Positions 7,188-58,137 of a stretch of 64,000 nt of DNA are shown one piece after another; within the stretch, counting starts at the first letter, position 1; each line of letters opens with the position of its first letter. Location of the stretch: NCBI GenBank assembly GCA_965140785.1, contig OZ223475.1:32001-96000 (forward strand). Reading direction: 5' to 3'. This DNA is from an uncultured Ruficoccus sp. Lineage in GTDB: Bacteria > Verrucomicrobiota > Verrucomicrobiia > Opitutales > Cerasicoccaceae. Position numbers and translations under genes: made by a program. A model generated the notes under the pieces. It had not been told where the DNA came from. It saw nothing but the letters and a program-made list of their open reading frames with translations, and made no database searches.

Positions 7188-8551
7188 ATGCAATACGTCA
7201 GTACGCGCGGACAAGGCGAAGCGGTCTCCTTCACACCCAGGCGGTCGCCGCCGGGCTGGCCCCGGACGGCGGGCTGTACCTGCCGCGGGAGCTGCCCGAC
7301 CTCTCTGGCAAGCTGGCCGCGTGGGAGTCGCTGAGCTACCCGGAGCTGTGTTTCGAGTTTTTAAAGGCATTCGCGACCGACATGGACGAGGCAGTCCTGC
7401 GCGCCCGGGTCGAGGAGTCCTACCAGTGCTTTACCCACCCGAAAACCGCCCCGCTGGTCGGCCTGAGCGACGACCTCTACGTCCTGGAGCTTTTCCACGG
7501 CCCGACGCTGGCCTTCAAGGACTTCGCCCTCCAGTTGGTGGGCAACCTCTACGAGGAGCAGATTCGCGGCAGCGGGGAGCACATCAACGTGCTCGGGGCC
7601 ACCTCCGGCGATACCGGATCAGCCGCCATCCACGGCCTGCTGGGCAAGGACGGGGTCAACATTTTCATCCTCTACCCGGACGGGCGCGTCTCCCCCTTGC
7701 AGGAGCGGCAGATGACGACCACCGGCGCCGACAACGTCTTTCCGCTGGCGATCACGGGCAGCTTCGACGACGCCCAGCACATCGTGAAGGAGCTGTTCGG
7801 CGATCTCGACCTCAAGCGCCAGTACCGGCTCTCGGCCATCAACTCGATCAATCTGGCCCGCATCCTCGCCCAGTGCGTGTACTACTTCTACGCGTATTTC
7901 CAGCTCCCGCCGGAGCGGCGCGAGGCGGTCGAGTTTATTGTGCCCACTGGGAACTTCGGCAACATCCTGGCCGGCTGGCTGGCCAAGGGCATGGGCCTGC
8001 CCGCCTCCTCCTTCCGCGTGGCCACGAACCAGAACGACATACTCTACCGGCTTTTCACCAGCGGCCTCTACGAGGTGGACGAGGTCGTTCCGAGCCTGGC
8101 TCCGTCGATGGACATCCAGGTCGCCTCGAACTTCGAGCGCTTCCTCTACTACCTGGAGGGGCGCGACCCCGAAAAGGTCCGCGCCGTCATGAGCGCGTTC
8201 AAGGACACCGGGCGGCACCAGTTCGAGAATTTCAACGCCGACGTCTTTACCGCCTCGCGCACGACCGATGCCGGCATCCGCGAGGTCATCGCCGACGTTT
8301 ATAAAAAATACGGCTACGTCGTCGATCCGCACACCGCCTGCGGCTTCGTCGAACGCGACCCGGCCAAGACCGCGATCGTCCTCGCCACCGCGCACCCGGC
8401 CAAGTTCCCCGACACCATCACCGAGGCGATCGGGATCGAGCCGACCGCGCCCGCCCTGGAGGCGATCAAGCAGAAGCAGATCGTCAAACACCGGCTCCCC
8501 GCCGACGAGGACGCCGTGCGCGCCTTCATCGAGGAGCATGCGCAGGTCTGA
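7188..8551 (+). CDS. thrC: Threonine synthase, with an apparent frameshift near 7231-7240
   Basis: MQYVSTRG, then GLAPDGGLYLP in another frame; LELFHGPTLAFKDFA, ATSGDTGSAA, NSINLARI, VPTGNFGN, PSMDIQVASNFER, DPHTA, ATAHPAKF. Confidence 0.93.
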
Positions 8552-8683
8552 GGAATACAGCCACTCGGTTAAGGTCATGCAGTTCAAAGAACGAGGTTGT
8601 CAGTCTTTTTTGGAGGGAGAAGCCAAAAGCGGCACAGACGCGCGCCGTAAATCCGCGGGTTGAAATTACCCGGTGCTTACTCC

Positions 8684-10468
8684 ATGAATACCCGTATGAG
8701 TACAATCTCTCGGTACCGTCTGGTTTGGGTGGTGTTTCTGCTGCTGCTGGCAGGTTTTCTCGCCAACAGTATCAGCAGCTACTATGTCTCCCGGGCCGAG
8801 GTGCGCGAGACGATCACCGAGAGTTCCCTGCCGCTGACTTCCGACAACATCTACTCGGTCATCCAGCGGGATCTGCTGCATCCCATCTTCATTTCCTCCA
8901 TGATGGCTAACGACGCCTTCTTGCGCGACTGGACGCTAGCCGGGGAGAAAGATGTAACGCAGATGCAGCGCTACCTGCAGGAAATCCGGCGTGAATTCGA
9001 CACGGTCAGCAGCTTTTTCATTTCCGAAAAGTCCCGTAATTATTACTACAGTGATGGCATCCTCAAACAAGTCTCCGAGGACGAGCCGCGCGACCTGTGG
9101 TACTACCGCGTCCGCCAGATGGAGCAGCCCTTCGAGATCAACGTGGACCCCGACATGGCCAACCACGATGCGCTCACCGTTTTCGTCAACTACCGCGTTT
9201 TCGACTATGACAACAATTTCATCGGGGCGACCGGCACCGGGCTCACCGTCAAGCGCGTCAATGCACTGATCGAGCACTACGAAAAGCGGTTTAACCGAGA
9301 GATATTCTTCGTCAACGATGAAGGCCGTATCGTGCTCTGTCCCCGCGACAGCAGCCTTTCCTCCTATGAAGAGCTCGCCGAGGTACCCGGCCTGACGGGT
9401 AAGGTGGATGAACTGCTGCACGGCCAGGAGGAGATCAAACTGAGGTATGAGCGCGATGGTAAAACATACTTCCTGAACAGCCGCTGGGTGCCGGAGTTGC
9501 ATTGGTATCTTATGGTTGAGCAGTCGGAGGATGAACTGCTGTCGCCGCTGCGCCATACCCTGGCGCTGAACATTCTGCTGGCACTGGTCATTACCGCCAT
9601 CGTCTCGGGGATGTGTTTGTCGGTCATCAGCCTGCATCAGAAGCGCCTGAAGGCCCGCAACGCGGAACTCTCGGCCAAAAATGCGGAAATCCAGATGCAA
9701 AAGCAGGAACTGGAAAACTCGGCGCAGGCCTTGGCAGAGGCCAACGCCGCGCTTTCGGCCCTCAACCGCGAGAAGGACGAGTTTCTTGGGATTATCGCGC
9801 ATGACTTGCGGAGCCCTTTGGGCACGATCCTGGGCCTGTGCCTCCTGATTGAGGACGAGTTGGCGAATTCCCCGGGAGGGGCCCTCGAATTCCTCAAGGA
9901 TATCCAAAAAAGCAGCCTGCATATGCAGGAACTCATTGGAGACCTGTTGGACATCAGCTCGATCGAGAGTTTCCACGGCCAGGTTGATCTGGAACCGTGT
10001 GTCTGGAATCGCCTGGCTACGGACGTTCGGGATCGTTTCAGAGCACAGGCCGCGGCCAAGGAGATTCAACTGAAGACCCGTCTCGATGCCCCCGAAGGGG
10101 AGGAGGTGCTTACCCGTGTCAAGTGGATGACCATCTGCCTGAACAATCTCGTCAATAACGCGATCAAGTATTCCCCCCATGGCAGCCAGGTATGGATCGA
10201 GACCGCAGTGGCGGCCGACGGTGCCGCCGAAGTGCGTGTGCGCGACGAGGGGCCCGGTATTTCCGAGGAAGAGCACGACCGGTTGTTCCAAAAGTTCAGC
10301 CGGCTTTCATCTCGGCCAACAGGGGGCGAGCAATCCAGCGGCCTGGGCCTGTATATCGTGCACAAGATGTGCCAGCGCCTCGGGGCAACGGTCGAGCTAC
10401 AGGCGGATACGAAAAAAGGGTGCTGCTTCATTATCCGCCACCCCCGCCACAGCACGAAGCGGATCTAG
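8684..10468 (+). CDS. Membrane sensor histidine kinase with a Cache-like periplasmic domain
   Basis: Two TM helices, coiled coil, H-box AHDLRSPL, N-box NLVNNAIKYS, DEGPGI, SGLGL. Confidence 0.9.
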   Translation: MNTRMSTISRYRLVWVVFLLLLAGFLANSISSYYVSRAEVRETITESSLPLTSDNIYSVIQRDLLHPIFISSMMANDAFLRDWTLAGEKDVTQMQRYLQEIRREFDTVSSFFISEKSRNYYYSDGILKQVSEDEPRDLWYYRVRQMEQPFEINVDPDMANHDALTVFVNYRVFDYDNNFIGATGTGLTVKRVNALIEHYEKRFNREIFFVNDEGRIVLCPRDSSLSSYEELAEVPGLTGKVDELLHGQEEIKLRYERDGKTYFLNSRWVPELHWYLMVEQSEDELLSPLRHTLALNILLALVITAIVSGMCLSVISLHQKRLKARNAELSAKNAEIQMQKQELENSAQALAEANAALSALNREKDEFLGIIAHDLRSPLGTILGLCLLIEDELANSPGGALEFLKDIQKSSLHMQELIGDLLDISSIESFHGQVDLEPCVWNRLATDVRDRFRAQAAAKEIQLKTRLDAPEGEEVLTRVKWMTICLNNLVNNAIKYSPHGSQVWIETAVAADGAAEVRVRDEGPGISEEEHDRLFQKFSRLSSRPTGGEQSSGLGLYIVHKMCQRLGATVELQADTKKGCCFIIRHPRHSTKRI

Positions 10469-10581
10469 GCAGTGTTGGCACCATACGCAACGAACGTACG
10501 GCGACTGGTTTTTACAACCTCGGCCCCGGGCAAAAAAGCGTTGCGAAATCGGCGGCGGGCGTTTTGCTTTTACGCCTTCAC

Positions 10582-38513: not shown

Positions 38514-38650
38514 AAAAAGTGGTGCTCAGGGAGGGAAGGAGACTAGGCGCTCAATCCCGCTTCAAGCCTGTGTTTATGCGGGTTCCGGGTTTTGGCTAGT
38601 TTGGGCTTGCGTGCTTTAATTAGGGTATGTTTGTATGAATCTGTATTGAA

Positions 38651-39901
38651 ATGCCAAGCCCGAAATCCACAAAACGCCCGAGCTACCCCAAGTCCATCAA
38701 GCGCGGGAATGTCTGTGTGAAGGTTTACCGGGTGAAGCACCCCCGCGTAAAGGCGGGCGTGGTCTATTCCGTCGCCTGGTACGATGAGACCGGGAGCCGA
38801 AGGCAAAAGCAGTACACGGACCCGGCAGAGGCCGACAAAGAAGCCGTCATCAAAGCCGATAAACTTGCCGCCGGAGAGTTACGGGCGGCAGATGCCACGA
38901 TGGCCGACCTACGGGAGCTTGAGCGGGCGCGGCAACTGGCACACCCCGAACCCGTCCTTGCTGCCTTGGATGAATGGCGGCAGGCACGGGAAGCCTGTCA
39001 GGGGCCGATCCTGCCCGCCGCTAAGGCATGGGCAGAGCGAAACCGCCCCTCCTTTAAGGTCAAGACCGTCAAAGAGGTCTCAGAGCTATTTATGGCCGCT
39101 AAGAAGGCGGCTGGCATCAAGACCAGCGAGAGCTACGAGCGGACTCTCCCTGCCTTTCTGGAGGCCGTAGGAGGGCAGCAGATGCACACGGTAGGGGCAA
39201 GACGCCTTCAAAAGTATCTGGAACGCTACGGAAACCCCGTTTCACGCAACACGCACCGTAAACGGATTGTTACCCTGTGGAGGTGGGCACGCCGGGCGGG
39301 CTACCTGCCTAGAGACGTGCAGACCGAAGCGGAGTTGACCGACCGGGCGCAAGAGACGGCAACCGACATCGGAATCATAGAACCGGATACCTTCTTTGCG
39401 CTCTTGCGACTTATCGAGGCCAAGCACAAGCACTATATAGCCCCGCTTGCTCTTGCTGGGTTCTGTGGATTGCGACGCATTGAGATTCACGGGCAGCGAT
39501 GGGAAGACATTCACCTTGAGCGCGGCTTTGTGCGAGTCACCACCGCCAAAGCCCGCACCCCGGCCAAGCGGCTTGTCCCCCTGGTGGGAGAGGCGGGCGC
39601 GTGGCTCTCAAAGGTTGCGCAGCCTGCCGGGGAGGTTTCGCCGGGCAATACCTGGGTACTGGACAGAATTCGCGACATCGGGCGCACAGCGGGCTTTACG
39701 CTGCCGGAGAATTGCTTTCGGCATTCCTTTATCTCTGCCCGCGTGGCAGCAACCGGGAACCTTGAGCGGACCAGCCTGGAGGCCGGGAACAGCCCGAGAA
39801 TCATTCACCAGCATTACCGCGAGCTTATGACCGCAGATGAGGGCCGGGCATGGTTTGGAATCAAAGAGACCGAAGAGAGCAGCAAGGAGGGGGCGCTATG
39901 A
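38651..39901 (+). CDS. int: Tyrosine integrase
   Basis: GFCGLRRIEI, AK, FRHSF, AGNSPRIIHQHY catalytic motifs; next to the att site. Confidence 0.93.
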   Translation: MPSPKSTKRPSYPKSIKRGNVCVKVYRVKHPRVKAGVVYSVAWYDETGSRRQKQYTDPAEADKEAVIKADKLAAGELRAADATMADLRELERARQLAHPEPVLAALDEWRQAREACQGPILPAAKAWAERNRPSFKVKTVKEVSELFMAAKKAAGIKTSESYERTLPAFLEAVGGQQMHTVGARRLQKYLERYGNPVSRNTHRKRIVTLWRWARRAGYLPRDVQTEAELTDRAQETATDIGIIEPDTFFALLRLIEAKHKHYIAPLALAGFCGLRRIEIHGQRWEDIHLERGFVRVTTAKARTPAKRLVPLVGEAGAWLSKVAQPAGEVSPGNTWVLDRIRDIGRTAGFTLPENCFRHSFISARVAATGNLERTSLEAGNSPRIIHQHYRELMTADEGRAWFGIKETEESSKEGAL

Positions 39902-40728
39902 GTAGCGAATGGGGCAGCATGTCGGGTGAATGTCCGATTTTGGATGTTGATGGGATGAAAGTCCTTGGCCTTCCTGGGGCCAGTAATGAAAACACTGAGG
40001 CGATAACCTATGTTTATAAACATGCTCCTGACTCATTTAATGATTGGCGAGATGTTGGCGATTTCACCGGACAAGGAGCCATCGGTTGTTTATTAAGCTG
40101 TACTCACTGCTATGCGGATTTCTCAGTTCGATTTGACATTTATACACCCCCATCAGCAGAGAAAAAAGGGCGTATTGAAAGCATAATGCTGCCGTTTAAT
40201 TACGGATGTGGTATGGGGAATGGCACCTTTCAAGATGTTCGTCCTGAGACCAAAAGAGCCCGTGAGGACTGGCTTCAAAAAAACTTGTTTCTTAGCATGC
40301 GCAACAAATCATGCATGGAAGCTATTGAAGCTTTCAAAGTCGAATACAGTGCCCTTATTGGGACAACGATTTGGGCCGGCCTAAGCACTAAGGCAATTTA
40401 CAACGCGTGGAGAGCATTTGATAAAAGAAAAGAGAATTGGAATGATTCTATGGTTTTTCGCCCCTTATTGGCGGCTGGATGGGATGGTTTCTTTTCTCAT
40501 ATAAAGCCGCATCGTGAAATTCTAAATTATTTCCCGAAAAAGTATTTCCCACACCTTACCGAAGGTACTCTTTCAACCGCCATTTCTGGAATGAAACTTC
40601 CAAACGAGCCGGGGCCTATAAAAATTGATATCGACCCTGAATCATATTTCAAATTCGTGCTTATCAATCAGAGCTTACTTCAGCATGAAAACCCACGCAT
40701 ATTAAAATCCGTGTACACGGATACTTAG
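39898..40728 (+). CDS. Hypothetical protein (AT-rich cargo)
   Basis: ATG overlaps the integrase stop (ATGA) with AAGGAGG upstream; no family recognised. Confidence 0.7.
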   Translation: MSSEWGSMSGECPILDVDGMKVLGLPGASNENTEAITYVYKHAPDSFNDWRDVGDFTGQGAIGCLLSCTHCYADFSVRFDIYTPPSAEKKGRIESIMLPFNYGCGMGNGTFQDVRPETKRAREDWLQKNLFLSMRNKSCMEAIEAFKVEYSALIGTTIWAGLSTKAIYNAWRAFDKRKENWNDSMVFRPLLAAGWDGFFSHIKPHREILNYFPKKYFPHLTEGTLSTAISGMKLPNEPGPIKIDIDPESYFKFVLINQSLLQHENPRILKSVYTDT

Positions 40729-40765
40729 CAAGATATTTCCCCATGCTTCCCCTATTGTTAGGGGC

Positions 40766-40984
40766 ATGGAAAACAGCATATCCGAACTAAAGCCGTCATC
40801 CTGGGCCATGCAGCGCCTGGGGTTCAGTGACCGGGTTTCCTTCCTTCAATTCGTGAAGAGGGAAGGTGTCCCGTTTTACCGCGTATCCGCACGCAACTTT
40901 AAGTTTTCCCCGCAAGAGGTGGAGGCTTGGCTTGAGGCCCGCCGCGTGGGAGGCCCAAGGGGAAAGGCGAGCTATGCGGGGTAA
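40766..40984 (+). CDS. AlpA/excisionase-like HTH protein
   Basis: 72 aa, VKREGVPFYRVSARNFKFSPQEVEAWLE (HTH_17-like). Confidence 0.75.
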   Translation: MENSISELKPSSWAMQRLGFSDRVSFLQFVKREGVPFYRVSARNFKFSPQEVEAWLEARRVGGPRGKASYAG

Positions 40985-41102
40985 GAAGCGCAAGAAGCTT
41001 ATCCGATGGGTGGACCGTTGCCTTGCCAATGGATATGTCCCGTATGGCTGGCCAAAGCGCCGTTGCCTATCCGCAAGGGGGGCGGGGCGTCATGAGGGCT
41101 GA
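40974..41102 (+). CDS. Small basic hypothetical protein
   Basis: MRGKKRKKLIRWVDRCLANG...; overlaps both neighbours in operon fashion. Confidence 0.4.
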   Translation: MRGKKRKKLIRWVDRCLANGYVPYGWPKRRCLSARGAGRHEG

Positions 41103-41277
41103 CCGTTTCAAACAAACCGCCCGCCGCCTGGGCTGTGTTTCCGGGCGTGATCTGCTGGCTAGGTTGCCCATAGACGCCAGCGACACCGTAAAGGGCTTCA
41201 CCATAGTTGACACAGTTACGACTGAGCAGCAGGCCCGTGAGCTTGCGAAGGCGGTATCGGATAGGAGCGCCCGATAA
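41092..41277 (+). CDS. Small hypothetical protein
   Basis: MRADRFKQTARR...; its TAA overlaps the rep ATG (TAATG). Confidence 0.55.
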   Translation: MRADRFKQTARRLGCVSGRDLLARLPIDASDTVKGFTIVDTVTTEQQARELAKAVSDRSAR

Positions 41278-42212
41278 TGAGCAGTGGGGCAGACTGGCAA
41301 TACACGATTCACAGCTCGTTAGACGACGCTGGGCTAGCCGCTAAGCCGTTTCGGGTGCTCTGCCATGTCTTGAGGCGCGGCAACTGCACTGAGAGCGTTG
41401 AAAACATGGCGAAGCATGTTGGGTTCAGTGCGAAATGCGTTCGAGAGGCGTTGCGTGAATTGATAGCCGAGCGCGGCATGATCGAGCGCCAGACGCGGAA
41501 AGGGCGTACATCCATTTATCGAGGGTTGCCCCCTGAGAGGTGGAAAACGAACCCCTCCCCAAAATCGCAAGGGGTACCCAAAACCGTAAGGGGTGGGGTA
41601 TCCAAAATCGACAGGGGGGACTCTCCGAAAACGACAGGGGACCCCTCCCCAAAACCGACAGACGAAGGAAATCCTATTAAGGAAATAAAGAAGGAAGGAG
41701 GGGAGGAAGGAAGCCCACCCCCCGCCATGCTTTCTTTTGATGGATATGAGGCAGCAGATGTTTTCCCGTCGAAATGGCCCGAGATCCTGCAAGCTCTCTC
41801 ATCCATCGAAAATCCCGACGAGCATACCCGCAGACGTATTGCTGTGGCTCGTCTTTGTCACAGTCGTCGAGATAGCTACAACCCGACCCCGGAAGAGATC
41901 GACGGGGAGTTGGCACGCATGATAACCGGCGCTGGAAACTTCGGTACAGTGGGCAGCAAAAGCAGCGGGCGAAACACTGGAACAGCAAACGAAGGAACGC
42001 GCTACGGACGAACTGACCGTGGAGCCGAAATTTTAGACAGACTCACCGAAGCCGAACTGAGGGCTCTTGAGTCACTTCCCGAGCCTGAACAATGGGAAGA
42101 ATTTATGAGCGAGGTATACAAACAGCAAAGGAAGTGGGAAACCGTATCGGAATACCTCAGGCCGCAACTGACAGCCGAGTGTAACGCTTGGGTGCAGGAC
42201 CGTACTTTCTGA
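41277..42212 (+). CDS. Phage-type replication initiator with N-terminal winged HTH and internal iterons
   Basis: SVENMAKHVGFSAKCVREALRELIAERGMIERQTRKGRTSIY HTH, followed by a repeat-encoded Pro/Lys/Gly linker. Confidence 0.7.
   Translation: MSSGADWQYTIHSSLDDAGLAAKPFRVLCHVLRRGNCTESVENMAKHVGFSAKCVREALRELIAERGMIERQTRKGRTSIYRGLPPERWKTNPSPKSQGVPKTVRGGVSKIDRGDSPKTTGDPSPKPTDEGNPIKEIKKEGGEEGSPPPAMLSFDGYEAADVFPSKWPEILQALSSIENPDEHTRRRIAVARLCHSRRDSYNPTPEEIDGELARMITGAGNFGTVGSKSSGRNTGTANEGTRYGRTDRGAEILDRLTEAELRALESLPEPEQWEEFMSEVYKQQRKWETVSEYLRPQLTAECNAWVQDRTF
41551..41661. repeat. Five iteron-like repeats, consensus CC(A/G)AAANCGN(C/A)AG(GGG)
   Basis: CCAAAATCGCAAGGGG, CCAAAACCGTAAGGGG, CCAAAATCGACAGGGG, CCGAAAACGACAGGGG, CCAAAACCGACAG; ACCCCTCCCCAAAA is exact at 41551 and 41641. 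Confidence 0.75.
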
Positions 42213-42264
42213 TGCCCCATTTACACCCTTGACAAATATACGCATTATGAGGATATTTAAAGAC

Positions 42265-42564
42265 GTGATTTTCATTGAGACCCCGATCTTTACCGATGAC
42301 TGGAATGATGAGGGCTTGGAAGATGAACAGCTACGAGCTTTGCAGAACGAAATCCTGCAAGGCAAAGGCGACATTATGCCGGGCACGGGTGGTTTCAGGA
42401 AAATCCGTATGGCCCGGAAGGGAGGCGGCAAGAGCGGCGGCTATCGAGTGATTTACTATCTCCAGACAGCCGACTTTTGCTTCTTGGTGTATTTCTACGC
42501 GAAAAACAAACAGGTCAACCTTACTCCCAAGCAGGCCAAGGAACTAAAGAAACTGATCGAATGA
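42265..42564 (+). CDS. RelE/HigB-family toxin
   Basis: MIFIETPIF...GDIMPGTGGFRKIR...GGKSGGYRVIYY...YAKN; start placed at GTG 42265. Confidence 0.88.
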   Translation: MIFIETPIFTDDWNDEGLEDEQLRALQNEILQGKGDIMPGTGGFRKIRMARKGGGKSGGYRVIYYLQTADFCFLVYFYAKNKQVNLTPKQAKELKKLIE

Positions 42565-42575
42565 AAGGGACGGTT

Positions 42576-42857
42576 ATGGATAACAAAGACTTTAAGCGCC
42601 TGAAAGATTCCGTACGCCAGATGAAGGCCATCCAAAACGGCGAAATGCCCGCCGGGCGCGTTACCATGCGCCGGGGCCGCGCTCCCGCCGTGGAAACGGA
42701 AATCGCCCGTATCCGGCTGGAGACAGGCTTATCCCAAGCCGCCTTTGCCAAGAAGCTGAAAACGCCCCTCAAGACCTATCAGGGGTGGGAGCAGGGACGC
42801 GCAACGCCCCCCGTTGCCCTGGTAGCTGCCAGGCTCTTGAAAGAGACCGTCTCCTAA
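42576..42857 (+). CDS. HigA-like XRE antitoxin
   Basis: IRLETGLSQAAFAKKLKTPLKTYQGWEQGR; downstream of the toxin. Confidence 0.88.
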   Translation: MDNKDFKRLKDSVRQMKAIQNGEMPAGRVTMRRGRAPAVETEIARIRLETGLSQAAFAKKLKTPLKTYQGWEQGRATPPVALVAARLLKETVS

Positions 42858-42861
42858 CCCG

Positions 42862-42889
42862 AAGCCCTGCCATGCGCGGGGCTTTTTTG
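42862..42889 (+). terminator. Intrinsic terminator after the TA operon
   Basis: AAGCCCTGC-CAT-GCGCGGGGCTTTTTT. Confidence 0.7.
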
Positions 42890-42928
42890 TGGCTGGACCT
42901 AATAGGTGACTGTGATAGTTCTAAACTC

Positions 42929-43819
42929 ATGGCTAAGAAGCTGTCCCCGATCCAAGCAGCCTTACTCCGCTTCAACGGCATTGATCCAGACGGGTTAGAT
43001 ACCCTCGACTATGAAATTGAACTGGATAATCTCAGTAAGCACGGTGACCGTCGCCTGATAGACATCTGGCAAGACTACCGAGGCGAGCATGAAGAAGAGA
43101 TTTTGAAAGAAGGGCCGGAAGTCGTGCCATTTGGGATTGGAGAGCGTTTACTTAAAGAGAAGTTGAGTAAGCCCAAAGTACCTACACCAAAGAAAGCGCC
43201 AACTAAGATTGTTCTGTCAAAAACACAGGCAGAAAGCCGAGAAGGCAAAGAATTGGTTCAACTGATTTGTCGTACATGCAGTTCTACCGAGCTATCAAAA
43301 GACGACCTTAAGAAATTGCGATCTGAAGTCACGAAATACGAAAAGACATGGGATGGCCACGGGGGTGTCATATTCTTGATCGGGCAAATAAACATGCACA
43401 TTGCCGACATGCAGGGCAATGCCCTCTCCTTGGAGCAAAGGATTGCGCTAGAGAACGCCATGCTTCGGCTTCTACCAAAATCCATGAGGGACAATACATC
43501 TATTGCCATCTCTAAACGCCTGGAGAGTGAGCCGATTTCAAAAGGGCAAATTAGTATGCTTCAGTTTTATGGGGTGACGGATAGTCTTGAGGGCATGTTT
43601 TTTGCTGAGGCTAAACGCAGAATTGATGAACTCGGAGTAGCTGACCTAAAGCAGCATATGGCCCGACAAAAAGCAGGCCGGAAAAAAAGAATGAAAGAGG
43701 TGAAGCGGGAAATAGGGCTTCGGGACGCACAAAAGTCTGGATGTGCCCTCATTATCGGCTTGGCTGTGCTCTTGCTCGTTTTGGGAACTGGAGTTGTTGT
43801 TGCATCACAACTGCCATAG
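42929..43819 (+). CDS. Hypothetical protein with C-terminal TM anchor (AT-rich cargo)
   Basis: Starts MAKKLSPIQ, ends CALIIGLAVLLLVLGTGVVVASQLP. Confidence 0.72.
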   Translation: MAKKLSPIQAALLRFNGIDPDGLDTLDYEIELDNLSKHGDRRLIDIWQDYRGEHEEEILKEGPEVVPFGIGERLLKEKLSKPKVPTPKKAPTKIVLSKTQAESREGKELVQLICRTCSSTELSKDDLKKLRSEVTKYEKTWDGHGGVIFLIGQINMHIADMQGNALSLEQRIALENAMLRLLPKSMRDNTSIAISKRLESEPISKGQISMLQFYGVTDSLEGMFFAEAKRRIDELGVADLKQHMARQKAGRKKRMKEVKREIGLRDAQKSGCALIIGLAVLLLVLGTGVVVASQLP

Positions 43820-43996
43820 GGGGGGCAAATCTCTGGAGGGAACGGCCCTGACACCGACCGTGAAGCTTAGAAAAAAATTCGCCCAAATTTTAAGAGGGGG
43901 GGGGTAAGGGGGGTACCCCTAAAAACTTCATGTGTTTTTTTTCGCACTTACAGCACGGTGTCAGAGCTATAGGGTCTAGGTATTTTCACACCCCAT
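43816..43996. repeat. Two ~85-bp cos-like modules in inverted orientation
   Basis: 43816 onward aligns without gaps to the reverse complement of 43996 backward: G run, AAAT, CTGACACCG core, AAG, A7-8, TTTT. Confidence 0.65.
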
Positions 43997-44053
43997 GCCT
44001 ATAGGCACACGCTATTGAATGCCTTGAAGGCAGACACATTTCTTTTCAGGCGT

Positions 44054-44368
44054 TCATGCCTCAGCTTCTACGCTCTCAAGAAGCTGCTGTGCTAGGCGAC
44101 GTGCCACCGCAGGAGGGAGGTATGCGCATGCCGACTCTTGACCCCAGCCCATAATCAAGCAAGGGCATCCGGTACCATCGGCATTAGGTTCTACATTGAT
44201 TGTGCATTCCTGACCGCCGTTTCCCCCGTAAACGGTTGGCGTGGAGAGCTGTCCGAATTCTTCGGTAATGAGGCCCTTTATTCGTTCGATAACTGAAACG
44301 CTACGTTGGGCAGGCAGTATCCCGATGGCGTTGCCGATCGAATACATCTCGTCATCTATCTTTTTCAC
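44054..44368 (-). CDS. Small hypothetical protein
   Basis: GTG start preceded by AAAGGAAAG; 104 aa. Confidence 0.55.
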   Translation of the reverse strand: MKKIDDEMYSIGNAIGILPAQRSVSVIERIKGLITEEFGQLSTPTVYGGNGGQECTINVEPNADGTGCPCLIMGWGQESACAYLPPAVARRLAQQLLESVEAEA

Positions 44369-44463
44369 AGTGCTTTCCTTTGATTTAGGTTTGTATGGGA
44401 TTTGTATGTAACAAAACAGGCAAATCCATAACTAGCCTATAACAAGGAACTTACAAAAAACAT

Positions 44464-44548
44464 TGGTGCTCAGGGAGGGATTCGAACCCTCACACCTTGC
44501 GGCACTGCCGCCTGAAGACAGCGTGTCTGCCAATTCCACCACCTGAGC
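44464..44548 (-). tRNA. tRNA-Leu(CAG)
   Basis: GCTCAGGTGGTGGAATTGGCAGACACG; anticodon arm CTGTC-TTCAGGC-GGCAG; long variable arm; CCA. Confidence 0.97.
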
Positions 44549-57784: not shown

Positions 57785-58137
57785 GGGGGTGTTCCGGATT
57801 CGACCCGGAGCCGTAGGGCCTGGCTGCATGCCGGAGATGATGGTTGGCTCCGTTATCAAATCCATCACACCTATAAATGGCGAAAATGAATACGCCATGG
57901 CTGCCTAATTAACGCAGTCACGCAGAAGGGCTGATACCTGTTAAGCCTGGACGCGATCACCTAGCAGGCATAGTCCGCTTCGGGTATCCGGAAGCGGGCC
58001 GTACTCAAACAGGATTCTCGCGGTACGACAGCGCGCTTCATCGCGGTCGCACCGTTAAACCAAAGATGATGCTAAGTATGTAGACGCCTTGCTTGAAACC
58101 TCCGGACACGCGGGTTCGACTCCCGCCACCTCCACCA
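57785..58137 (+). ncRNA. ssrA: tmRNA; tag (A)GENEYAMAA at 57879-57908
   Basis: 5' GGGGGTG...GGATTCGAC; 3' GGGTTCGACTCCCGCCACCTCCACCA; ATAAAT before the resume codon; tag ends AA-stop. Confidence 0.96.

Follow-up and report, generated by a model that had tools for sequence, protein, structure and literature searches.

In a 64-kb stretch of DNA (the window) from contig OZ223475.1 of an uncultured Ruficoccus sp. of the Verrucomicrobiota, we identified a small genomic island inserted at the 3' end of a tRNA-Leu(CAG) gene. The island is intact, and its modules for integration, replication and addiction are well supported. We interpret it, with a probability of roughly 0.45, as a capsid-less phage satellite in the style of the PICMI and VEIME elements, a "hitcher". 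We favor this interpretation because relatives of the integrase and excisionase genes lie in 8-9 kb islands with genes for a small terminase (TerS) and a capsid protein, a relative of the replication initiator lies beside a TerS gene, the integrase clade also occurs in complete prophages, and the gene order follows that of PICMI.

A sequence-only reading of the same DNA had gone further, proposing a new minimal type of satellite in a phylum without characterised satellites. Both proposals are superseded by the literature, as far as the parts of the reports drawn on here go: PICMI is already published at 6.1 kb without terS or capsid-remodelling genes (PMC10803314), and VEIMEs are reported integrated in Verrucomicrobia genomes (PMC9618062). 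With capsid-less satellites already mapped to the phylum, the island would be a satellite variant of a published kind and not a new type.

A discrete insertion at tRNA-Leu(CAG)

The island measures 5,944 bp, or 5,961 bp with both flanking repeats counted. It is bounded by TGGTGCTCAGGGAGGGA, a perfect 17-bp direct repeat whose two copies (38520-38536 and 44464-44480) are spaced 5,944 bp apart; the match stretches to 23 nt if two mismatches are allowed. As the sequence-only reading had stated, the repeats are perfect and the element sits in tRNA-Leu. The right copy forms the 3' end of the tRNA-Leu(CAG) gene. We compared the host assembly (G000, 4.36 Mb in 50 contigs) with four other species of the genus (G001-G004). 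The tRNA-Leu site is empty in three of these four congeners (loci L015, L016 and L017 of G001, G002 and G003, the three whose junctions are counted, that of G004 being left out), and there the island's left flank abuts tRNA-Leu(CAG). At the empty sites the alignments of the left flank and of the tRNA overlap by exactly 17-23 nt, which is the repeat. The precision of these empty sites shows a discrete insertion into the 3' end of tRNA-Leu(CAG) and rules out a chance repeat or an annotation artefact.

The element occurs once in the assembly and none of its nine open reading frames (ORFs) is interrupted, so that the earlier description of an intact element of ~6 kb is borne out. Its GC content is 0.53 compared with 0.59 for the window, and the GC content at third codon positions is 0.41-0.72 in island genes compared with 0.77-0.86 in three flanking host genes. 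The features of the island are as follows.

38520-38536, no strand: attL, the left copy of the 17-bp repeat, a perfect match to 44464-44480.
38630-38637, plus strand: a TTTGTATG motif, candidate integrase arm-type site, 94 nt inside attL.
38651-39901, plus strand: tyrosine integrase of 416 aa, matching phrog_1 (integrase) at 1.8e-14.
39898-40728, plus strand: orf2, a 276-aa orphan, read directly from the sequence.
40766-40984, plus strand: Xis-like HTH_17 protein of 72 aa, with its own PF12728 match only at E 0.11.
41023 or 41029 to 41277, plus strand: orf4, a small ORF of 82-84 aa, read directly from the sequence.
41277-42212, plus strand: Rep, a winged helix-turn-helix (HTH), lambda-O-like replication initiator of 311 aa, predicted from PHROG matches.
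41559-41664, plus strand: five iterons CCAAAAYCGNMAGGGG (starts 41559, 41578, 41602, 41625 and 41649) inside rep, the putative origin.
42229-42564, plus strand: RelE-family toxin in HigB-like position, likely start ATG 42247, matching PF06296 at 4.1e-14 (53.3 bits, cut-off 27).
42561-42857, plus strand: HTH_3 antitoxin of 98 aa, matching PF01381 at 26.5 bits (cut-off 23).
42860-42890, plus strand: terminator-like hairpin after the toxin-antitoxin pair, conserved in a relic island of G003.
42929-43819, plus strand: orf8, a 296-aa orphan, missing from the G003 relic.
43820-44053, minus strand: conserved non-coding block of 234 bp, identified by conservation and RNA fold.
44054-44368, minus strand: orf9, a 104-aa orphan from the ORF call, the sole gene on the opposite strand.
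44390-44408, plus strand: two TTTGTATG motifs (starts 44390 and 44401), candidate arm-type sites, 56-74 nt inside attR.
44464-44480, no strand: attR, the right repeat copy and 3' end of tRNA-Leu, from the repeat search and tRNA call.
44464-44548, minus strand: tRNA-Leu(CAG), the intact target gene (ARAGORN; Rfam tRNA, 50.9 bits).

Searches of Pfam, PHROGs, NCBIfam and PADLOC matched none of the nine ORFs to a capsid, terminase, portal, primase, helicase or relaxase family, in line with what the sequence-only reading had reported for capsid, terminase, primase and relaxase. No coupling-protein or mobilisation family was matched by any of the nine either, and PADLOC gave no credible match to a defence system among them.

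Integration, replication and addiction modules

The integrase combines a catalytic-domain match (phrog_1) with a conserved R..K..R..Y set, as expected of a tyrosine recombinase and in agreement with its earlier naming. Residues R275, K300, R357 and Y389, which we take to be that catalytic set, are invariant among 15 aligned orthologues; the match to PF00589 reaches 24.3 bits, under the cut-off of 27.1. Directly downstream, the ATG of orf2 (39898) overlaps the integrase TGA (39899-39901) as ATGA, with AAGGAGG 8 nt upstream. This gene has a GC content of 0.43 and matches no family in Pfam, PHROGs, NCBIfam or PADLOC. A word-index search of 5.8 billion clusters returned only orf2 itself, the ESM Atlas held no match at 0.9 or above, and an AlphaFold2 (AF2) model was useless (pLDDT 33). 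By its position, orf2 may be likened to iolg of PICMI.

The 72-aa protein had been described as AlpA/Xis-like, and the Xis part of that description is the one that holds. PF12728 (HTH_17) is matched at E≤0.01 by seven of ten proteins related or analogous to Xis, one of them above the cut-off. Orthologues with 57-58% identity adjoin related integrases, and the one in locus L034 (57%) matches phrog_66, an excisionase. As for the AlpA family, no Phage_AlpA match is listed for the 72-aa protein at E up to 10.

Three of the four occurrences of TTTGTATG in the window fall within ~110 nt of the island ends. Shuffled sequences held 0.83 on average, and one of 100 reached four. The motif was chosen after the island ends had been inspected, which makes these figures weak evidence; it is a weak candidate for a sequence flanking the att core as integrase arm sites would.

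Upstream of rep, orf4 ends in a TAA that overlaps the rep ATG (TAATG), indicating that the two are translationally coupled; orf4 has no credible match in Pfam or PHROGs. Residues 26-139 of Rep match PHROGs 391, 428, 270 and 678 (replication initiation, O-like) at 2e-5 to 2e-4, and all of its PHROG matches are phage replication initiators, with no other kind among them. The match to PF13730 (HTH_36) is weak, the C-terminal half is without a match, and a sequence search of the PDB returned winged-HTH regulators only, at E>0.1. The five iterons inside rep are spaced 19-24 nt apart and are the only matches with at most two mismatches in the window (shuffles held 0.79 on average; one of 100 reached five). 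They are followed by a purine- and A-rich stretch to about 41715.

Six weak homologues of Rep were found among the 5.8 billion clusters. All six combine the N-terminal domain with a linker of tandem peptide repeats and an EGNPIK motif, and the linker repeats are at the same place in each, with a sequence that differs from protein to protein. Because the repeats are kept while their sequence changes, as in lambda O, the DNA repeat itself is likely to be the selected feature, which argues for an origin within the gene. A lambda-O-style rep with an in-gene origin, combining an O-like N-terminal DNA-binding domain with iterons inside its own coding sequence, is thus well supported; iteron binding and origin function are predicted from sequence. 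This agrees with the earlier proposal of an HTH replication initiator with iterons. The layout of initiator domain, in-gene iterons and following A-rich stretch resembles lambda O and ori-lambda. In sequence the resemblance is weak, at E about 1e-5, with the C-terminal half unmatched, and the island has no gene for a P/DnaC-like loader. The replication gene is O-like in place of a primase or helicase.

The two genes downstream of rep make up a predicted type II toxin-antitoxin (TA) pair of the RelE/HigB type with the toxin gene upstream, as the sequence-only reading had proposed when it called them HigBA-like, and both pass their Pfam cut-offs. The toxin also matches phrog_5869 (1.2e-22) and the antitoxin phrog_2104 (2.7e-12); matches of the antitoxin to NadS/MqsA-type NCBIfam models are weak. 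The antitoxin ATG, a start deduced from the ORF list, overlaps the toxin TGA by 4 nt (ATGA). A related RelE/HTH pair, with 77-80% protein and 75% nucleotide identity, occurs in congener G002 (contig C73, locus L014, 8500-9160). There the pair is embedded in low-GC sequence that has no related integrase; the adjacent ORF, of 403 aa, contains a motif, HPFxDGNGR, that by eye resembles that of Fic. Because a related pair is found in this unrelated island, the TA pair looks like an exchangeable module.

In place of the two unknown cargo genes proposed earlier, we count three orphan genes and one small coupled ORF. Of the orphans, orf8 has a hydrophobic, membrane-anchor-like C-terminus (by eye) and no family match in Pfam, PHROGs or NCBIfam. 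The word-index search found only orf8 itself, and an exhaustive search found two weak relatives with 28-30% identity and the same hydrophobic tail. Neither the ESM Atlas (at 0.9 or above) nor a sequence search of the PDB gave a match, and its AF2 model is all-helical and unusable (pLDDT 52). No family or PDB match was found for orf9 (Pfam, PHROGs, NCBIfam, PADLOC and PDB), and a variant piece of it is present in an algae metagenome.

Between these two genes lies the non-coding block (43820-44053). Its core, 43822-43985, contains an imperfect long inverted repeat (~43842-43877 against 43934-43968). The core is ~93% identical, and a wider stretch 86% identical over 208 nt, to a sequence in a decayed island at tRNA-Gly(TCC) of G003. 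In that relic the block comes directly after the same terminator hairpin and orf8 does not intervene; the window sequence at 42854-42888 is 97% identical to 9781-9816 of the relic locus, L013. The relic (contig C52, L013 ~7900-10490) carries this terminator and block without orf8 or orf9, and its ORF translations suggest by eye that only the N-terminal part of an integrase is left, together with a second TA-like pair.

The sequence-only reading had called this region a pair of non-coding cos-like modules. A non-coding, conserved block is indeed present; its cos-like character is not borne out. As RNA, the minus strand folds better (z = -3.58, with none of 200 shuffles as good) than the plus strand (z = -1.71), and the stem contains four G-U/U-G pairs that the opposite strand could not form, and no compensatory changes (n = 2 sequences). 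A covariance model found no further copy in 151 genomes of the order or in 31 other sources, the host genome holds no second copy, and Rfam recognised only the tRNA above threshold. Cores of 27 and 23 nt had no matches in viral and genome contig collections. A 19-nt core hit one metagenome contig (L060; 38 nt at 89%) in an unrelated chromosomal context without integrase or tRNA, which we judged uninformative. The block has no similarity to contig C32, which carries the only large terminase (TerL) gene of the genome. A cos or pac identity is unsupported, as no phage, viral or terminase-cluster match was found. Overall, the evidence better fits a structured RNA read from the minus strand, and the block could also be a cis-acting DNA site.

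Related islands, viromes and a candidate helper

Searches for homologous elements, which the sequence-only reading had suggested, did recover relatives of int/xis and of rep in small islands with a small terminase and/or capsid gene. For the integrase, we searched 400 other genomes of the order and fetched 20 loci. There are ~20 full-length integrase orthologues, with 36-60% identity, none of which belongs to the family of the host. An Xis orthologue sits beside the integrase in eight of the 20 fetched loci; no match to Rep, orf2, orf4, the toxin, orf8 or orf9 turned up in the 20. In ten of 18 loci checked, an ORF following the integrase gene overlaps its stop by 1-25 nt.

Two loci share the layout of the island, their integrase gene lying at a distance from the tRNA and pointing into the element, and both are inserted at tRNA-Arg(CCT). 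L032 (6301-15355) is a 9,055-bp island with 28-bp repeats. It encodes an integrase (60% identity), an integrase-overlapping ORF without similarity to orf2, Xis (58%) and a replication protein of the DnaD/O-like kind. Matches to PF05119 (85.7 bits) and phrog_267 (1e-10) identify a small terminase of P27 type and a major head protein. L034 (2865-10811) measures 7,947 bp and has 14-bp repeats. Its genes are those for the integrase (49%) and an ORF next to it, for Xis and a DnaG-type primase, for a small terminase matching phrog_57, and for a capsid protein of the HK97 type (PF05065, 146 bits). Neither island gave a match to a TerL, portal or tail gene. A further locus, L047, has a DUF3987 primase-helicase and an HK97 capsid gene. 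From their gene content, L032, L034 and L047 look like capsid-encoding satellites in Verrucomicrobiota. Among the 12 other genome loci surveyed, of which L047 is one, L036, L037, L039 and L040 have primase/helicase genes only. The genes of the remaining ones are for methyltransferases, helicases, antirestriction proteins or transposases, or are unannotated.

The Rep family is rare, occurring in four of 400 other genomes of the phylum sample. In L069, an integrase gene, an ORF overlapping it by 4 nt and an RNase H gene accompany rep and a small terminase gene (phrog_51, 5e-9). L070 lies beside tRNA-Leu(GAG) and encodes an integrase, an HTH_17 protein and Rep. Taken together, these loci place the backbone of the island in a phage-associated pool whose small islands often, unlike the present one, carry TerS and/or a capsid gene.

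Genome G099 (contig C3) holds four copies of a 38%-identical integrase (L041-L044) with near-identical tblastn coordinates, which suggests a multi-copy element; most ORFs of L041 have no PHROG match.

A search of IMG/VR with the alignment of 15 integrases recovered eight contigs at 41-46% identity. All eight encode phage-type proteins, and five have a portal, protease, capsid, tape measure or TerL gene. The integrase as a single query found nothing in genome or viral contig collections, Rep had no match among phage proteins, and the DNA of the whole element had no match among plasmids.

Four public runs were available, all as assembled contigs; they contain no joints and are not informative on a circle or an empty site. 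One of the four looks like the source of the assembly, and another has identical pieces of the island. The other two are algae metagenomes of a separate study, whose contigs include variants ~1-10% diverged; in one of these two, both junctions are bridged by contigs. The host lineage seems to be in culture and associated with algae.

The host genome has no match to HK97 capsid, portal or TerL_ATPase families. Its single TerL gene lies on contig C32 in a ~9-kb head-like cluster with host-like GC (~38.7-47.8 kb; L062, 4762-13757), comprising a 196-aa ORF and TerL, protease-like, major-head-like and tail-fibre-like genes. Of 15 further genomes from the family, 13 retain this cluster, at 55-89% identity. 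Because it is conserved across the family with an identity that tracks kinship, it is vertically inherited and no ordinary prophage. We regard it as a candidate for a domesticated, gene-transfer-agent-like system; among the papers listed by one literature search, none was obviously about it.

Six contigs of the host assembly (C9, C20, C28, C41, C44 and C15) have a GC content of 0.28-0.49 in an assembly otherwise at ~0.6. They could be foreign replicons or contamination, and no TerL family was matched on them. Elsewhere in the window there are a tmRNA gene (57785-58137, tag peptide GENEYAMAA) and further genes for tRNA-Lys, tRNA-Pro and tRNA-Gln.

Comparison with known satellites and rival explanations

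The comparisons that follow are limited to those parts of the cited reports from which each description is taken. PICMI, from Vibrionaceae, is a 6,110-bp element with 17-bp repeats and the genes int, an ATGA-overlapping iolg, alpA, a primase gene and accessory genes (PMC10803314; preprint 10.1101/2023.07.18.549517). Its iolg is needed for excision, with ATGA as the most frequent form of its overlap with int, a large non-coding region adjoins the target gene, and it lacks terS, sid and ppi and is packaged as 8-mers by a virulent phage (PMC10803314). The island likewise has ~6 kb, 17-bp repeats and its integrase at the end far from the target gene. From there it reads in the same order, with int, an ATGA-overlapping ORF, a small HTH regulator or excisionase, a replication gene, accessory genes, a large non-coding region and att, and it has no terS or capsid-remodelling gene. 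It differs in having a lambda-O-like initiator with in-gene iterons instead of a primase, an HTH_17 regulator instead of AlpA, tRNA-Leu(CAG) instead of fis as target, and a host in Verrucomicrobiota instead of Vibrionaceae. A gene overlapping the int stop is thus present; the trio of int, alpA and primase is incomplete, and because this core trio fails for want of a primase, the island is PICMI-like in architecture and no PICMI member. The likeness described here is one of layout, and helper dependence, established for PICMI, would be a prediction for the island.

VEIMEs are capsid-less marine elements defined as concatemers found in virions; some have a plasmid-type Rep, some have been mapped to Verrucomicrobia genomes, and module 3, the one associated with Verrucomicrobia, has mostly serine recombinases (91%; PMC9618062). 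Like them, the island is small, bears an integrase and lacks capsid genes, and some VEIMEs also have plasmid- or phage-type initiators and TA genes. Unlike module 3, its integrase is of the tyrosine type, and it is known from genome sequence whereas VEIMEs are known from virion DNA.

For PICI, five core components are listed in PMC10085698, the main text of which, as far as used here, does not mention Verrucomicrobia; the average size is 9.5 kb (quoted in PMC10803314). The island shares the backbone of integrase, putative regulator and replication gene, and its relatives L032, L034 and L047 resemble PICI-type elements further by having TerS and/or a capsid gene. It has the integrase (phrog_1) and lacks three of the five components, namely the primase-replicase, capsid morphogenesis and TerS, with the reservation that its orphan ORFs leave room for unrecognised capsid or TerS analogues. 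For the regulation module (alpA, merR or stl), the 72-aa protein gives HTH_17 at E 0.11 and its relatives are HTH_17 proteins. The island is also ~3.5 kb smaller than the average PICI.

As a satellite, the island might work as follows. Int and Xis, perhaps with the product of the int-overlapping ORF, would excise a circle whose attP core is flanked by the TTTGTATG arm sites. Rep would bind the iterons within its own gene and recruit host replication proteins, and the TA pair would penalise loss of the element. Since neither a packaging nor a capsid gene was found in the island, its spread would rely entirely on the particles of a helper. The apparently membrane-anchored orf8 product and that of orf9 may be accessory, in the position of the anti-phage cargo of PICMI, and the structured block next to attR could serve as a cis-acting or RNA regulatory module.

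Several results weigh against a satellite. The analysis brought up no sign of excision or packaging. No helper is known for the island, no gene or site for helper sensing, capsid redirection or packaging was recognised in it, and the sole TerL of the host lies in the vertically inherited cluster and not in an obvious prophage. Single-protein scans of IMG/VR found no match to the element, Rep or orf8, and the DNA of the whole element matched none of 50,697 phage records. The genes common to the island and the TerS/capsid islands are int and xis only, and Rep has no similarity to the replication protein of L032. Moreover, the integrase clade is not peculiar to satellites, as seven of 15 related integrase loci in genomes lack structural, primase/helicase and Rep-type genes and hold cargo that is apparently for defence or of another kind. 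Finally, four of the nine ORFs are orphans or near-orphans, from which a function other than that of a satellite would be unreadable.

These observations leave some room for a stand-alone, self-replicating integrative islet, a mini-replicon kept by its TA pair and moving rarely by transformation, vesicles or generalised transduction, with no dedicated helper. All functions that can be identified are indeed integration, replication and addiction, with no gene for packaging or interference, and both the lack of a virome match and the defence-type or non-phage cargo of part of the related integrase loci fit such an islet. We nevertheless consider it somewhat unlikely, as Rep matches phage and not plasmid initiators, plasmid DNA gave no match, the closest int/xis and Rep relatives bear TerS and/or capsid genes, and the layout copies that of PICMI, an experimentally proven satellite (PMC10803314, in the part cited above). 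The same relatives suggest another history, in which a mini-satellite with TerS and capsid genes had its packaging module replaced by the TA pair, orf8 and orf9 and is now essentially immobile and held by addiction. TerS and capsid genes lie downstream of the replication gene in L032, L034 and L069, where the island has exchangeable modules. A TA pair with 75% nucleotide identity is present in the unrelated G002 island, orf8 is missing between the same terminator and block in G003, and the G003 copy is a decayed relic. Against such a stripped descendant, the backbone genes and both att copies are intact, and other samples still hold copies that have the same gene set and are near-identical or slightly diverged. 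Because PICMI and VEIMEs are functional though capsid-less, the absence of TerS is no sign of decay, and we hold this history to be quite unlikely.

Small int/xis islands without transfer genes are often mobilisable, and the structured block could in principle be an oriT used by the relaxase and mating pore of a conjugative element. With no relaxase, coupling-protein or mobilisation family in any of the nine ORFs, all recognisable affinities pointing to phages, and the one other copy of the block also lying in an int/TA relic, an integrative mobilisable element is very improbable. Returning to the capsid-less satellite, we note a broader and decidedly unlikely version of it, in which one chassis (int, an int-overlapping ORF, an HTH_17 Xis and a phage-type initiator) alternates within the order between capsid/TerS-bearing and stripped forms. 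The stripped form would use the block for packaging or helper sensing, and its helper might even be the C32 cluster, our candidate gene transfer agent, in place of an infecting phage.

The island is a well-delimited candidate rather than a demonstrated satellite. If it is a satellite, PICMI-style minimal satellites would extend from Vibrio to Verrucomicrobiota, and such elements could run on a lambda-O-type initiator with an in-gene origin. Its capsid- and terminase-bearing relatives would then form a natural series for asking which genes satellites can give up.

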